Assembly (NCBI GenBank): GCA_963755915.1
Contig: CAVWLP010000002.1
Coordinates: forward strand, 3,808,001 to 3,872,000
Reading direction: 5' to 3'
Source of the DNA: an uncultured Phycisphaerales bacterium
GTDB taxonomy: Bacteria; Planctomycetota; Phycisphaerae; Tepidisphaerales; Tepidisphaeraceae
DNA: 64,000 nt
Under the pieces are notes generated by a model. That model made no database searches. It was given only the letters and a program-made list of their open reading frames with translations, and was not told the DNA's origin. Every line of letters starts with the position of its first letter. The stretch's first letter is position 1. The translations under genes and the position numbers were made by a program. Shown here in pieces: positions 48,683 through 59,210 of this stretch.

Positions 48683-48824
48683 CCTTCACCCTTCGATTTC
48701 TTCGGCCGCCCGAGCTTGCGGTTGCGGACCTTGGCCAAGTCCTTCGTATAAGAACTCGAAATTAGCCGAAATGCAAAATCGCCCGGAAATCCGGGCGATT
48801 TGCGGGAAACCATGGTTTCCTGAA

Positions 48825-48897
48825 TACCCCCTAGGGGAGTCGAACCCCTGTCCTCTGGCTGAGAACCAGATATCCTGGGCCACTAGACGAAGGGGGC
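48825..48897 (-). tRNA. tRNA-Glu(CTC)
   Basis: GCCCCCTTCGTCTAGTGGCCCAGGATATCTGGTTCTCAGCCAGAGGACAGGGGTTCGACTCCCCTAGGGGGTA. Anticodon arm TCTGG-TT-CTC-AG-CCAGA. CCA not encoded. Confidence 0.95.
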
Positions 48898-49344
48898 TTC
48901 GAATGGGCTTGCCCAGCGGATGCAATCCTAATGCGGATGCGCGGAAGGTCAAGAAATCGGGTTTGGCCCCGTGGATGCGGGGCGGGGCAATCGCTTGCGC
49001 CTCGTAAAACGCAGAAGGCCGCCACCCATCGTGCCGAAACTAGCTGAAGAGGACAGGGGGCTCCCCGGGAGTACCTGACCGCCCGACACATTTTTTGAGT
49101 TCGAGGAGTAAGCGGCCGGCTCTTTTGAAGACAAATGCAAAAGCAATGCAGGGGAGGCGGGAGACAACCCATAAGGCCCCAAGGTTTTTCTCCCGCCTCC
49201 CCCGCACCCCCACTCCCTCTCCTTTTCCCCTGCTATGTTGGTTGTCAAGTGTGGGCCGCATTCGCCGCCTTTATTCTTTTGTCTTTTTAAGCTGTTGCTC
49301 GGCCTGTCAGTGTCCGCTCTGCATGGGCTGTTGCCATCATTGCG

Positions 49345-49485
49345 GCAACGCTCTTCCTGCTATCCGTACCTGGCGGTTTGCCAGTACACCATGGTCTAAT
49401 ACGTCCGTTGCAGGCGGTTCACGCTGACCCAATCTAACCGCCGAACGCTCAAGGGCGCTCATAGGGGAAAACGGGCGCGTTACAC
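49345..49485 (-). ncRNA. Predicted bridge/seekRNA of the IS1111-type element
   Basis: Two internal loops, each with a central hairpin. Guides UUUUCCCCU / GGCGGUUAG match the target, CCAU / AUAGCAG match the donor junction. Transcript ends unknown. Confidence 0.75.
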
Positions 49486-49574
49486 CGTGGCTCGTCTCTT
49501 TCACTTTTATTCCAAGCTCTTTATCCGTCGTCCATCCAGGCTCCAGAAGTTCGGGGACAACCTTGGCCGGCTTT

Positions 49575-50714
49575 TTACGCTGCCAGTTTCAAGCCCAGAT
49601 CCTGCGCTTTGACCCGGCCGGTTTTGATCCGCCACAGGTCCACCGCCAGTTGCCGCGCCAAGGCCACCGCGGCTTTCTTGCGCATGGCTCTGGCTCCGGG
49701 GTTCTCGAAGACCTGCTTCCAGCGCTTCAGACGAAAATACTCCGGCTGGAACTTGGGCAGCAGCCACGCCAGTTCCACCAGCACCGTGCGCAGTCGGCGG
49801 TTGCCATGTTTGTCGATCGACAGATTCATCCGGCTCTGGCCTGAGGAGGATTCTCCAGGGCAAAGCCCGGTGTAGCTGGCGATCTGCCGGCGGTTCTGGA
49901 AGCGATTCCAGTCGACGATCTCACGATCCAGCAGCTCATAGCTGAGGTGTCCGATTCCCTTGATCCGGGCCGATTCGCGGGACTTGGCCTCCGCGCAGAG
50001 CTGGCGGGTCAGTTCATCTCGCTTCTGGTCCATCATCTCTACCATCTCCAGGTCGCGGGCAAGCTCCTTGCGGATCGGTTCGATCAGTTCTGAGCCGTAG
50101 AGTTCTTCCAGCTTTTTCAGCAGCGGCTCACACGCCAGCGGCTCCCACCATTTTCCCGGGCGATGGATGCCGAGGCTGTGCAGCAGGCTTCGTCCACGGG
50201 CGATCCAGCGCTGCCGTTCCTTTCGGTAGGTGTTGCGCTCGCGCCCCAGGCGGCGGTGGATCTCCTGGGCCACCGTGGGGACACGCACCAGACGCAGCGC
50301 CGTCGTGTTGCCGGCGAGATGCCGGTCCAGACGCGAGAGCAGTTCGGTGGCGTCGATCTTGTCGTTGACTCTCTTGCGGCCGCGGGACAGACGTTCGGGG
50401 GCACAGACCAGGCACTCTACGCCCAGGGCGGTGGCTTCGCGGTGCAACGCGAAGCCGTAGGGACCGGCTTCGTAGACCATCACCACGCGTTTGGCCAGCG
50501 TCAGCTGCTTTTTGAGAAACTCGATGAAGACGGCCGGCGAGAGTTTTTGGGCCGGTTGAATCCCCTGATGATCGACCATCCGTGCGAAGGTATATTGCTG
50601 GCTGTGGGTATCCACGCCGAGTTTGATCACCTCGTGCGACTGATTGGGCTTCGAGACTCTCTCCCCTCGAACTTGGGAGGCCTTGCGGCTACCTTTAGAA
50701 GAATTGTGTTTCAT
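49575..50714 (-). CDS. IS110-family transposase/recombinase (379 aa, intact)
   Basis: LGVDTH, VYEAGPYG, NDKIDA (DEDD RuvC-like), IKGIG, YTGLCPGESSSG (catalytic Ser loop), KHGNRRLR, VALARQL. Confidence 0.93.
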   Translation of the reverse strand: MKHNSSKGSRKASQVRGERVSKPNQSHEVIKLGVDTHSQQYTFARMVDHQGIQPAQKLSPAVFIEFLKKQLTLAKRVVMVYEAGPYGFALHREATALGVECLVCAPERLSRGRKRVNDKIDATELLSRLDRHLAGNTTALRLVRVPTVAQEIHRRLGRERNTYRKERQRWIARGRSLLHSLGIHRPGKWWEPLACEPLLKKLEELYGSELIEPIRKELARDLEMVEMMDQKRDELTRQLCAEAKSRESARIKGIGHLSYELLDREIVDWNRFQNRRQIASYTGLCPGESSSGQSRMNLSIDKHGNRRLRTVLVELAWLLPKFQPEYFRLKRWKQVFENPGARAMRKKAAVALARQLAVDLWRIKTGRVKAQDLGLKLAA

Positions 50715-51124
50715 GGTTGTCGGGTTTAGTCGACGGTGGCTAGCCCGACAACCAACATGCCATCTAACCGTCCCCCCCAAAAGGCGAAATACGGAGGCGT
50801 TTCGCCAGTGATTCGCGCACCTCGTACACGTGGGCGTTGGAACATCCGATTGCGTGAATGCGGTCGTGCACGCATTTGATGGGGGAGCGTTGAGGGGAAA
50901 AGGAAGAGGAGTGGGGAGGGGGAAACTTTTGTCCTCGACCCTCAGCTCAGACCGGAGGGGGGCCCTATATCGGTTCCCCCTCGCCCCGCCCGCATTGCAT
51001 TTGCATTTGGAAGACTTTGCCAATTCGTCTCCCAACTCAAAAAAGTGTCGGGCGGTCAGGAGTACCAGGGGAGGGGGAAAAGGGGGACATCCGAATGCCC
51101 TGGGACGCGGATTGTTTCTAAATT

Positions 51125-51361
51125 TTAGAATCTTCCCCAAAGGAAGAAGGCCGCAATCCCGGCCAAAGTAAAATCGACCACGGCACCAAGTACGAATCTT
51201 AAATCCCCGGCATGGATTCCCGCTAAACTCAATGCGATCCCGCTGGTAACCCAGATAATCGCAACCATCCCGATTAGAAATCTGATCGCGGGTGGAAGTT
51301 GTCGCTTTCGTTTGGGCGAAGCCCCACCATAGTCGAGCTGGTGTGGCTTGGGATTATCCAT
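51125..51361 (-). CDS. Small 2-TM hypothetical protein
   Basis: MDNPKPHQLDY... followed by two hydrophobic helices. Confidence 0.5.
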   Translation of the reverse strand: MDNPKPHQLDYGGASPKRKRQLPPAIRFLIGMVAIIWVTSGIALSLAGIHAGDLRFVLGAVVDFTLAGIAAFFLWGRF

Positions 51362-52792: not shown

Positions 52793-53200
52793 CTGTCCGC
52801 CCGGCATTGTGTTTGTTTCGGACGCACATCGGCCGTCGCATTAAATGCAAATTCGAAATGCAATGCAGGGGAGGCGGGAGACAACCCATAAGGCCCCAAG
52901 GTTTTTCTCCCGCCTCCCCCGCACCCCCTCCACCCACTTTCCGCTTCTCCTAACCGTCCAAGGGCAAAGACCGATGGGCTCGCGCCTTTGTGCGGATCGC
53001 AAATTCTTCTGCCTCCGGATGGTTGAGGGGAAAAGGAGAGGGAGTGGGGTGGGTGCGGGAGGGGCGAGGGAGAAACTATAGAGGCGCCCTTGCGACTCAT
53101 CTCATGTGGTTCTCCCTCGCCCCTCCTGCATTGCATTTGTCTTTCGTCCTTAAGCGAGCCGCCCTGGGGCCAACGCATTTAAAAAGTGTGGGGCCGCCAG
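52793..53200. mobile_element. MITE-like palindromic element copy B (408 bp)
   Basis: Degenerate TIRs CTGTCCGCCCGGCA / TGTGGGGCCGCCAG. About 65 bp identical to copy A (GCAATGCAGGGGAGGCGGGAGACAACCCATAAGGCCCCAAGGTTTTTCTCCCGCCTCCCCCGCACCCCC). No clear duplication. Confidence 0.8.
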
Positions 53201-54175: not shown

Positions 54176-54648
54176 TTGACCAGCGCGACACTTTTCTAAT
54201 GCGTTGGGCAAAGAGGTGCTCGCTGAAAGGCGAAATTCAAATGCAATGCAGGAGGGGCGAGGGGACACCATATAAGGCCCCAAAAGATAAGGCCCCAAAA
54301 GTTTTCCCCTCGCCCCTCCCGCACCCACCCCACTCCCCTTCCTTTTCCCCTCAACGCTCCCCCAGAAATGCAATGCATCGCAACCACTGCGTAATTGTGT
54401 GGCCGAAGGACCACGTGGACGCACAGCGCCGATTCTTGCAGAAATATGTCGGCATTCCGGATTTGGGATTGGACGGTTAGGGGAAGTCGGAAAGTGGAGG
54501 AGGGGTGCGGGGAGGAGGCGAAAACCGCTTGGGGCGCCCATGCAACTCATCTCGCGGGGTGTTCGCCTCCTCCCCGCATTGAGTTCGCATTTGCCTCTAA
54601 AAAGGTTGCCGCTTTGGGGTCAAAAACAGAGAGTTTCGCGCGTCCAAG
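54176..54648. mobile_element. MITE-like palindromic element copy C (~470 bp, inverted relative to B)
   Basis: TTGACCAGCGCGACACTTTT end, AAATGCAATGCAGGAGGGGCGAGGGGA hairpin arm, CCTTTTCCCCTCAACGCTCC, GGACGGTTAGGGGAA arm. Confidence 0.75.
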
Positions 54649-57237: not shown

Positions 57238-59210
57238 GTGCGTCAGTGAAACCGGTTTTGTCTTGTGAACTGAAAGGAGTTCACCATGGAATGACCCGTT
57301 AGCCGTGTAGCCGCCCGGGCGTGACGACGGAGCAATCGGTCGCGCGAAGCCCCGGAAGGCGAAGGCGCGAGCCGTAGCGTTAAGCGAACCCAAACCAGCC
57401 TCGTTACGCCAATGGGAGTGGCCAACCCGTCAGAGAGGGCCAAGCCGGCGCGGACGATGAAGCAGCGGGTGCGAGCAATCGTCCGGCTCCTCGGGGTCGA
57501 TGGGGACGGCGCGTGCCGACAGACAAGATCGGGAACTGAGAGACCCCACGCATCGTTGTGCGGCTCGTTGGAAAGACATAACCAAGGGACGGGAAGCGTG
57601 GGGAGTCGGATGGGCTCATAGTAGCTGAGAAGCGGGGTAATGCCCGTGAGCGGAGGCGAAGCCTGCCGCGAGCCAAGGAGCCCTGACGGTATCGAGCGGA
57701 AGTAAGAAGAAGAGAGGCCCGCTTGCAGGGACAACCTGACAGTACGGATGATCCGACAGACTTGCCGGAGCACCTGAGGGTGAACTCCAGGGGTCTGCCG
57801 GGGAAAGTCTTTCTTCTGAGACAGAAGCTATACCTCAAAGCCAAGCGGGAACCGGGGTTTCGGTTTTACACCTTGTACGACCGGATCTGCCGGCGCGATG
57901 TTCTGGAAGCGGCGTGGGACCGGGTGTCCGCCAACGGCGGGGCGCCCGGCTTGGACGGGGTGAGCATCGAGAAGGTGCAAAACTCCGAGCACGGCGTCAG
58001 TGGATTCCTGAGCGAGATCGAAGAATCGCTCAAGACCCGCACCTACCGCCCGCAGCCGGTGAAGCGCGTGTACATTCCCAAAGCCAACGGCAAGCGGCGT
58101 CCATTGGGCATCCCCACGATCCGAGATCGCGTGGTGCAGATGGCGGTGCTGCTGCTCATCGAGCCGATCTTCGAGGCGGATTTCCTGGACTGTTCGTATG
58201 GATTCCGTCCCGGTCGCTCGGCTCACGATGCGCTGGAGGCGATCAAGCAAAACCTCCAGCAGGGCCGAAGGGAAGTGTATGACGCGGATTTGCAGTCGTA
58301 CTTCGACACGATTCCCCATGAGAAACTGATGGCGTGTGTCCAGAAGCGGATCACGGACGGAAGCGTGCTGAAGCTGATCCGGATGTGGCTGAAGGCGGTG
58401 ATCGTCGAAGAAGGCGAGAAGCCCGGCGATCCACCGAAAGTCACCCGGAGCAAACAGGGAACGCCGCAGGGCGGAGTGATCTCGCCGCTGCTGGCCAACC
58501 TATATCTGCACTGGTTTGATAAATTGTTCCACCGATCCGATGGCCCGCATCGCTGGGCGAACGCCCGGCTGATCCGGTACGCCGACGACTTTGTCATCAT
58601 GGCAAGGTATATAGGCCCTCAGATCAAGCAGTTCGTGGAACGCACGCTGCAAGGCCGGTTTGATCTGACGATCAACACCGACAAGACCCGCACGGTGAAG
58701 TTGAAAGAGCCGGGCGAAAGTCTGAACTTTCTCGGGTACAGGTTCCGGTACGACCGGAGCCTGCAAGGCGGGCCGGGGCGTTATCTGAACCTCTGTCCTT
58801 CGAGCAAGTCGATGCAGCGTGAGCGGGACAAATTGCGGGAGATGACCGGACCCGAAGCAGGCTTTGTGCCCATCCCGGCGTTGATCGTACAGATCAACGA
58901 GCACCTGAGAGGATGGGCCAACTACTTCGGCAAAGGCTATCCGCGCAAGGCGTTCCGTCAGATCAACCGATTTGTGCAGGAGCGACTGGAACGACACCTT
59001 AAACGTCGCAGCCAGCGTCCGTTCCGTGTGCGCGGAGCGAGGAGCTGGTACGAACAGTTGCAGCGTCTGGGCCTCATCAGCCTGCGACCTGTTCCGACCG
59101 TGAATGCTTGAGAAGAACAATACCGTGAGAGCCGGATGCGGGAAACCCGCTCGTCCGGTTCGAAGAGGGAGAGCTGAGCGGCAATCGGGTCGTTCAGTTC
59201 TCTACTCTAC
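57238..59210 (+). mobile_element. Group II intron (1973 nt)
   Basis: 5' GTGCG at 57238, domain V GAGCCGGATGCGGGAAACCCGCTCGTCCGGTTC (59129-59161), domain VI with bulged A (59204), 3' end AC. Flanks rejoin to restore a palindrome. Confidence 0.9.
57723..59111 (+). CDS. ltrA: Group II intron reverse transcriptase/maturase without endonuclease domain
   Basis: [56 protein letters not shown]. No HNH at the C-terminus. Confidence 0.95.

Follow-up and report, generated by a model that had tools for sequence, protein, structure and literature searches.

The window analysed here, a stretch of 64,000 nucleotides (nt) from an uncultured Phycisphaerales bacterium of the Tepidisphaeraceae (positions 3,808,001 to 3,872,000 of contig CAVWLP010000002.1, assembly GCA_963755915.1), carries on its minus strand an insertion sequence that is with high probability an autonomous, RNA-guided element of the IS1111 type inserting into a repeat of its host. 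This is the best explanation of what is observed at the locus and in its homologues, namely insertion at one specific site, six identical genomic copies, an intact gene, a conserved RNA scaffold, and covariation of the RNA guides with both the flanks and the ends of the element. RNA guidance of IS110 and IS1111 elements has been demonstrated experimentally and has been in print since 2024 (PMC11187229, PMC11208160); the element is a clean, uncharacterised example of this known kind and leaves the mechanism itself unchanged. The same overall interpretation had been put forward in an initial annotation of the window, and it withstood the examination of further copies and of homologues on which that annotation had staked it. 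In the mechanism proposed, a DEDD/serine recombinase would be guided by an RNA of about 145 nt whose sequence lies downstream of its gene, within the element's long right end. The element would be excised as a circle with the joined ends ..CATAGC-AG-ATGGC.., the CCAU of the donor loop of the RNA would pair with ATGG at the start of the left end, and the joined ends would recombine at the common AG with GGACGGTT-AG-GGGAA, a target present in about 20 copies of a composite host repeat.

The boundaries of the element were read from its junctions, which on the minus strand are GGACGGTT-AG-ATGGCATGTTGG on the left (flank 50773-50766, AG 50765-50764, first element base 50763) and CAACATAGC-AG-GGGAAAAGG on the right (last element base 49232, AG 49231-49230, flank from 49229), or, in longer form, ..GGACGGTT-AG/ATGGCATGTTGGTTGTC.. 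and ..GACAACCAACATAGC-AG/GGGAAAAGG.. (Table 1). All junction, guide, and hairpin strings of the initial annotation are present where it had placed them, and its range of 49223-50773 takes in 7-8 nt of flank and the AG on each side. The left end measures 49 nt (50763-50715) and the non-coding right end, downstream of the gene, 343 nt (49574-49232). A TTGACA (49248-49243) overlaps the right subterminal inverted repeat, and a hairpin in the left end, an arrangement also present in the homologues L007 and L008, may play a role in the control of translation.

The host genome (three contigs, 6.6 Mb) contains six copies of the element that are 100% identical, with zero differences over 1,549-1,551 base pairs (bp). 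In all six the left border is GGACGGTT-AG and the right border AG-GGGAA, which answers the question, raised in the annotation, of whether other copies lie at unrelated sites; the next two bases vary among the copies (AA, GG, or GT). As the contexts of the six copies are unrelated beyond ~200 nt, they occupy six separate places. Two of them, L002 (C2:1386078) and L004 (C2:1812307), lie in opposite orientations and have in common an identical or near-identical left flank of ~200 nt, which may be a repeat variant or the result of an old rearrangement, and their right flanks are unrelated past the repeat. The uninterrupted 14-mer GACGGTTAGGGGAA has 12 exact unoccupied occurrences in the genome and two with one mismatch, and the 14 empty sites all fall in one repeat family. 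Taking occupied and empty sites together, GGACGGTT[AG]GGGAA is invariant in 18 of 20, the other two, both empty, having one mismatch. The AG stands at both junctions in each of the six copies and only once in the empty sites, which indicates that insertion produces no target duplication. The repeat that holds the target is composite and at least 250 nt long, its parts being an upstream module, the target, a stretch rich in G, and a long hairpin; it flanks the element in the window at 49100-49229 and 50766-50900. It gave 32 BLAST matches in the genome, 23 of which span the G-rich part and the hairpin and 12 the target. The start of the upstream module (TTCCCCTCAACG) is almost the inverse of the target, and some repeat copies are arranged head to head.

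Homologues of the element were collected with an alignment (A1) of its protein and 19 homologues, with which 578 loci were confirmed in a metagenome scan and 80 of them kept, fourteen at 63-73% identity (L015-L028) and the remainder at 40-47%. The locus L096 (51% identity), in which no left end could be recognised and the right flank and the guide are out of register by one G, stands outside all counts, and L097, from genome G462, was unused. For the RNA, the non-coding regions of 15 elements were aligned, namely this element, L007, L008, L015-L018, L020-L026, and L028, of which L016 and L026 are missing both element ends; L019 and L027 were left out because their contigs end before the non-coding region.

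The scaffold derived from this alignment with RNAalifold and pair counts comprises five helices (P0-P4), arranged in a target module and a donor module that each contain an internal loop. P0 is the outer helix. P1, which closes the target loop and had not been named in the annotation, joins ACGCGCCCG (49480-49472) to UUGGGU..GCGU (49431-49421), with 100% of cells paired and two compensatory pairs. P2 is the inner hairpin of the target loop (GAGCGC/GCGUUC, 49460-49455 and 49448-49443; 97.1% paired, two compensatory pairs). P3 closes the donor loop and extends outward the previously described GCAACG/CGUUGC (49411-49406 and 49350-49345; 87.5% paired, two compensatory pairs), and the donor loop has as its inner hairpin P4, with a conserved bulge (GUACUGGC/GCCA(G)GUAC, 49387-49380 and 49374-49366; 100% paired, four compensatory pairs). 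Over the whole scaffold, pairing holds in 96.4% of 555 cells, and both sides are changed in 10 pairs. None of 500 shuffles reached its number of such pairs, paired share, and covariation score, and 87 of 500 reached its further pair types; in slid controls, with the partner moved by 1-3 columns, 24-41% of cells were paired. The RNA scaffold is thus conserved among the homologues. A 19-nt stretch in the region of the left target guide (49436-49454) is 79% complementary to a stretch of the transposase gene (49784-49802), probably by chance.

Within this scaffold, the right target guide is the strand just 3' of the 5' arm of P1, and the left target guide is the strand ending in AG just before AUUGGG. 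The latter has the same sense as GACGGTTAG and would therefore pair with the bottom strand, with one G opposite a T; G49442 may close the inner hairpin instead of guiding. Both target guides were found to change with the flanks of their own element. The reverse complement of the right target guide and the right flank of the same element have a longest common string of 8.8 nt on average, compared with 4.6 nt for the flanks of the others (n=10, 0/20,000 permutations), and the left target guide agrees with its own left flank at 6.1/9 positions, compared with 4.2/9 for other flanks (n=13, 0/20,000 permutations), although homologues that have a target in common are not independent and these permutation counts therefore overstate significance. 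Tracking of the right flank spans at least six targets (GGGGAAAA, GGGGTCGG, GGGACGC, GGGTGTG, GGGGACATCA, and GGTGACATC). The guide match to core and right flank is AGGGGAAAA in this element, GGGGTCGG(G) in L007, L008, and L022, AGGGACGC in L018, AGGGTGTG in L023, GGGGACATCA in L024 and L028, with one G more in the right flank of L024 than the guide predicts, and AGGTGACATC in L025; in L020 the contiguous match is AGGGG only (5 nt), or 8/10 by ungapped count. The left flank is repeated by the left guide as GTGAAAAG in L025, CCCGAAG in L021, and CGGTTAG in this element. Among distant relatives (41-47% identity), all 13 correctly parsed loci have a guide base opposite GGTTAG[A/G] that fits the flank, the 5' guide having been parsed in 17 loci of which L048, L058, L086, and L089 were dropped as parsed in the wrong place; L080 and L082 of this group are near-duplicates. 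Together, the guide changes and the compensatory changes in the helices give strong support, by the homologue covariation that the annotation had called for, to its interpretation of the target guides. Its estimate of about 16 bp of target pairing holds in part. The bases that follow AGGGGAA vary across the sites (AA, GG, GT, GC, or CG), and the last two U of the right target guide therefore pair perfectly at only three of the 20 sites, those ending in ..GGGGAAAA (this copy, L002, and one empty site), to which the estimate applies; at most of the others these two bases could pair as U-G only.

How far such matches could arise by chance was assessed with 5,000 dinucleotide shuffles of the non-coding region of this sequence. 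The 9-nt right-target match was reached in one shuffle, the 7-nt exact left-target match in 500, and both target matches jointly in none, whereas the 7-nt donor match was reached in 328 and the longest exact match to the left end and core, 5 nt, in 4,190. Within the single sequence only the right target guide stands out, and the case therefore rests on position and on homologue covariation; as a 5-nt match is so common in shuffles, the 4-nt CCAU carries no weight on its own. The frequency of three of the four guide matches in shuffles, and a thermodynamic fold that is unremarkable, would both suit an explanation in which the target is chosen by the protein, or by the inverted repeats through DNA-DNA contacts, and in which the matches in the non-coding region are due to chance or are relics of the target. 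This explanation is scarcely credible, since in 15 homologues the matches occupy the same places in the scaffold and change with the respective flanks, the scaffold helices carry compensatory changes, and experiments have shown RNA guidance for the family to which the protein belongs (PMC11187229, PMC11208160).

The donor guides and the element ends are invariant in the close group (left end ATGG with right donor guide CCAU, right end ATAGC with left donor guide AUAGCAG), which on its own is therefore no test. Across the distant classes, the donor guides covary with the element ends. In L029 the left end ATGC goes with the right donor guide GCAU, and in the distant group and L043, L061, and L066 the left end ATGA goes with UCAA, UCAU, or UCAUCU. 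On the other side, the right end CATAGG of the main distant group goes with the left donor guide AUAGGAG, and L043, L061, and L066 have the left donor guide AUAGCAG, the right end of L061 being CCATAGC. The choice of RNAalifold for the donor module was a different pairing, of CCUGC (49414-49410) with GCAGG (49360-49356), which is 100% paired in the 15 sequences and would mask part of the left donor guide, and which could represent either the true closure or a competing, perhaps regulatory, conformer. It is considered unlikely that the donor module folds in this way. The five pairs are invariant or changed on one side only, and so lend no covariation support, and the GCAGG side is already fixed by its match to the element end, whereas P3, the closure given in the annotation, has its two compensatory pairs. 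As judged by eye, the distant relatives show no CUCCU-type partner for AGGAG in the sequences inspected, and around the donor module they have UUCCUCUUCC paired at long range with GGAAGAGGAA.

Table 1. Coordinates of the element, its predicted RNA, its target sites, and other features of the window.
Feature	Positions	Strand	Details and basis
Insertion sequence body	49232-50763	-	1,532 bp excluding the shared AG, 1,534 bp including one AG copy; junctions read
Left target half GGACGGTT (50773-50766) and core AG (50765-50764)	50764-50773	-	same in 6/6 copies
Core AG (49231-49230) and right target half GGGAAAA (49229-49223)	49223-49231	-	junction reading
Left subterminal inverted repeat ATGTTGGTTGTC	50747-50758	-	12 nt, 100% complementary; inset 5 nt (ATGGC)
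Right subterminal inverted repeat GACAACCAACAT	49235-49246	-	12 nt, 100% complementary; inset 3 nt (AGC)
Left-end hairpin TGGTTGTCGGG/CCCGACAACCA	50714-50754	-	11 nt, 100% complementary; 3' arm stops on the A of the start codon
Transposase/recombinase gene	49575-50714	-	379 amino acids (aa), open frame; NCBIfam, Pfam, residue conservation, fold match
Basic N-terminal extension MKHNSSKGSRKASQVRGERVSK..	50630-50714	-	residues 1-28, ahead of the family-profile match
Predicted bridge/seek RNA	49343-49487	-	~145 nt; 15-homologue consensus structure; ends predicted
Target module	49415-49487	-	73 nt; consensus structure
Target-binding internal loop	49421-49480	-	closing helix 49480-49472/49431-49421; inner hairpin 49461-49455/49448-49442
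Right target guide UUUUCCCCU	49463-49471	-	complementary to top strand AGGGGAAAA; covaries with right flanks
Left target guide GGCGGUUAG, i.e. (G)GCGGUUAG	49434-49442	-	8/9 to GACGGTTAG; covaries with left flanks
Donor module	49343-49413	-	consensus structure
Donor-binding internal loop	49343-49413	-	closing helix 49413-49406/49350-49343; inner hairpin 49388-49380/49374-49365
Right donor guide CCAU	49391-49394	-	complementary to first four bases of left end, ATGG; position kept in 15 homologues
Left donor guide AUAGCAG	49357-49363	-	identical to right end ATAGC and core AG
Unoccupied target GACGGTTAGGGGAAGT	54472-54487	+	C2 + 3862471
Unoccupied target GACGGTTAGGAGAAGC	52943-52958	-	one mismatch in 14-nt core of site; C2 - 1147404
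Right part of host repeat	49100-49229	-	G-rich stretch and long hairpin (~49208-49145); repeat alignment, BLAST
tRNA-Glu gene	48825-48897	-	anticodon CUC
Group II intron reverse transcriptase/maturase frame	57723-59111	+	462 aa; TIGR04416, 389.9 bits (cut-off 300)

The product of the open frame matches the NCBIfam model NF033542, 'IS110 family RNA-guided transposase' (equivalog), at 163.8 bits (cut-off 140) over residues 33-363 and profile positions 3-337 of 343, and its C-terminal domain matches Pfam PF02371 (E=8e-16). The residues D35, E82, D118, D121, S291, and G292 are invariant among the 20 homologues of A1, and a catalytic role of the four acidic ones is suggested by analogy. The motif YTGLCPGESSSG (GLCPGESSSG; G283 L284. 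P286 .... S291 G292), the positions of which are likewise invariant, agrees with the GL-P----S(t)G pattern of IS1111 transposases. A phmmer search with the single protein against PDB sequences gave no match, and the A1 profile found the IS621 PDB chain in the C-terminal domain only (E=2e-4), where the SG falls on the ESGSS of IS621. For an AlphaFold model of the protein (mean predicted local distance difference test score, pLDDT, 79.6), the best fold matches are IS621 chains 8wt9/8wt6 and ISCro4 9t56 (E=4e-8 to 2e-6), the alignment with IS621 spanning 356-367 columns (ranks 1-9) at 17-20% sequence identity; the template modelling (TM) scores are low (0.24-0.31) because domain placement differs. 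The N-terminal part of the model also matches the RuvC, RuvX, and YqgF folds. In the N-terminal extension of ~30 aa, which is modelled at pLDDT <50, K11, A12, R16, and S21 are invariant in the 20 homologues, and the first 24 residues, though conserved, have low model confidence. The gene is intact, with its putative catalytic residues kept.

Features that place an element in the IS110 superfamily were found here, namely the protein model, a RuvC-like domain with DEDD, the Ser-Gly, a shared core without target duplication, and covarying guide loops. Elements of the IS1111 type are described as having subterminal inverted repeats 7-17 bp long and the RNA in a long right end opposite a short left one (PMC11208160), and also a guide order in which the top-strand match lies 5' of the bottom-strand match, the GL-P----S(t)G motif, and a transposase length of 330-350 aa (PMC11187229). 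In the present element the repeats have 12 bp, the ends are short on the left and long on the right, and the RNA lies downstream of the gene; the GL-P----S(t)G motif is there, and so is the same guide order, with UUUUCCCCU (top-strand complement) 5' of GCGGUUAG (top-strand sense); its 379 aa fall outside the reported lengths, which are a range and not a definition. In the bridge RNAs described, left guides pair with the bottom strand and right guides with the top strand, the core included, and a bridge RNA is predicted for 93% of the IS1111 elements in ISfinder (PMC11208160). By the architecture set out in these reports, the element fits an IS1111-type member of the IS110 superfamily, in agreement with the initial assignment.

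Several observations weigh against an RNA-guided element as read here. The left-guide match is loose in several homologues (4-6/9), being weakest in L015, L023, L007, L008, and L022 (4-5/9). The right donor guide has 4 nt only and contains no complement of the core, and it has two exceptions, L015, in which the left end is ATCG and CCAU is unchanged, and L089, in which the left end ATGG stands against UCAA (a mismatch, or a U-G pair). One pair of P3 is broken in 11 of 15 sequences. Folding of the single sequence, suggested as a check in the annotation, failed to yield its two loops in the minimum free energy (MFE) structure (z-score -1.0), and the consensus structure has -44.6 kcal/mol compared with -53.5 for the MFE. 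An Rfam scan of 48800-51200 at E<=1 found no bridge-RNA family, only the tRNA and chance microRNA-like matches, of which the repeat hairpin is a source. The Pfam model of the N-terminal DEDD domain, PF01548, had no match even at E<=10, and a promoter scan of the linear element found no sigma-70-like promoter. A contig from a metatranscriptome library covers 49374-49597 with two differences, which is no proof of transcription, as RNA libraries can hold DNA and the contigs are without strand or ends; the contigs of runs X19 and X20 cover small shares, parts of the gene only, and the lack of such cover elsewhere in the element is uninformative.

As to expression, joining of the ends would set TTGACA 17 nt upstream of CATGTT, with TGG directly before the latter, as read by eye. 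Inspection by eye gave the same spacing for the distant group (TTGACA..CATGTA) and for L029 (TTGACC..CATGGT), and the geometry of TTGACA or TTGACC, 17 nt across the joined ends, and CATGNT recurs in three classes of relatives. Junction promoters have been described for the family (PMC13604230, PMC11208160), and by analogy a promoter may form across the joined ends (TTGACA, 17 nt, TGG-CATGTT), and the RNA would be transcribed and would bind the recombinase. A circular intermediate and present-day activity are likewise suggested by analogy. From its sequence the element appears to have been recently active. The annotation had likewise described it as an intact, possibly active orthologue.

The distribution of the element bears on the same question. 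A single-protein scan of species-representative genomes gave two loci at 64-65% identity, in metagenome-assembled genomes of Tepidisphaeraceae and Phycisphaeraceae, and in a protein database at least 2,355 proteins were found at E<=1e-20 (among 8,000 candidates scored), the best 120 of these 2,355 being 59-100% identical and nearly all metagenomic. At E<=1e-60 the transposase is present in four of 141 genomes of the order, counting the host and the unpublished G462, and in none of 12 genomes of the same genus; in a sample of the phylum, three of 401 genomes had it at E<=1e-30, and two weak matches there have 36-37% identity. Repeats and multi-copy elements are often missing from short-read assemblies, so these genome counts are lower bounds and little can be read from the sparse distribution. 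Identity to plasmid-borne and named relatives reaches 37% at most (ISRel9, ISSso6, ISEc45, IS5708, and ISShdy1 at 26-32%), which agrees with the poorly sampled lineage proposed in the annotation, whereas relatives at 60-98% are plentiful in soil metagenomes, which does not. In another study's soil metagenome, a DNA contig holds a 98.8% variant, with 18 differences and one gap over 49225-50773, and both loose ends run into the same composite repeat that carries the target. The element might be of the right kind and no longer mobile, the six copies stemming from a past burst and the RNA or the protein now failing. The sparse distribution in the order and genus, the lack of a promoter in the linear form, and the contigs, in which no circle junction and no occupied/empty polymorphism were seen, are in keeping with such a loss. 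It is nevertheless held to be improbable, given six copies without a difference, an open frame with all catalytic residues kept, 14 sites that are still free, and the 98.8% variant at the same type of site in another sample.

The most unusual side observation is a mismatch between donor and target cores in the distant relatives L030-L094 (40-47% identity), in which the donor core is AG and the target core GG. AG stands at the left junction in 48 of 52 loci and GG at the right junction in 35 of 43, the pair (AG, GG) occurring in 27 of the 35 loci with both junctions visible, and unoccupied look-alike sites on the same contigs read ..T-GG-TTAG.. in 17 of 20 and have AG in none of the 20. Donor and target cores therefore differ at the first base, each junction keeping one. 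In the target loop of these relatives, AG occurs in the left guide, whose counterpart on the right contains the complement of GG. In the window element both cores are AG, the mismatch being confined to the relatives; for IS621, a CT core highly conserved in donor and target is described (PMC11208160). It is tentatively suggested, as a reading of rather low probability, that the element and its metagenomic relatives form a distinct, soil-centred IS1111-type branch with its own RNA scaffold, a conserved basic N-terminal tail, and, in its distant members, the AG/GG pair of cores. If the mismatch is due to mechanism, and not to common descent or a bias of repair, the crossover that is inherited would lie 5' of the core and the identity of donor and target cores would be dispensable in this branch. 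It would then be directly testable in which order and at which position strands are exchanged in IS1111-type elements, and the mismatch is the sole point that could alter the known mechanism.

Elsewhere in the window, the tRNA-Glu gene lies ~330 nt past the right end of the element, just beyond the repeat, the genes adjoining the element are ordinary chromosomal genes, and the group II intron reverse transcriptase/maturase frame represents a second mobile element. A phosphomannomutase encoded in the window has 81-82% identity to proteins from Tepidisphaeraceae metagenome-assembled genomes and 78% to Fontivita pretiosa, which points to a Tepidisphaeraceae-like planctomycete as the host, its genome apparently assembled from soil.

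The interest of the element lies in its being a clean natural example, in which a single genome lets the element be read together with its RNA, six insertions, and fourteen free targets, and in a ladder of relatives with at least six targets that reveals the programmable positions of the RNA. It is a candidate orthologue for bridge/seekRNA engineering, with an AG core and potentially ~15-16 bp of target pairing, from the Planctomycetota, for which no characterised bridge/seekRNA member was found. Among known systems, it resembles the IS1111 seekRNA elements ISEc11, ISPa11, ISKpn4, and ISPst6 (PMC11187229) in its subterminal repeats, long downstream non-coding region, and GL-P----SG motif, and differs from them in its 379 aa compared with 330-350 aa, its N-terminal extension, and its target, a composite G-rich planctomycete repeat, as well as in being known from sequence alone. 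The predicted RNA of 145 nt and its 73-nt target module come near the long (148-172 nt) and short (82-96 nt) seekRNA species reported (PMC13604230). With IS621 (PMC11208160; 8wt6-8wt9) it has in common two internal loops with left and right guides to the bottom and top strands, a 2-nt core common to donor and target, and the same two-domain recombinase fold with a serine motif. Unlike IS621, it has the RNA in the right instead of the left end, the reverse guide order within each loop, subterminal repeats of 12 bp rather than 2-3 bp (PMC11208160), and the core AG rather than CT, which its right donor guide leaves uncovered. Insertion into repeated genomic sequences, REP (repetitive extragenic palindromic) elements among them, is described for the IS1111 family (PMC11208160). 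In this respect the element is like the REP-targeting IS110-family elements ISPpu9 and ISPpu10 of Pseudomonas putida, which are multi-copy, lie in repeated extragenic sequence, and have a small RNA gene downstream (PMC12288879), and of which ISPpu10 is named among examples with bridge RNAs (PMC11208160), whereas the host phylum, the target, and the sequence of the RNA are different.

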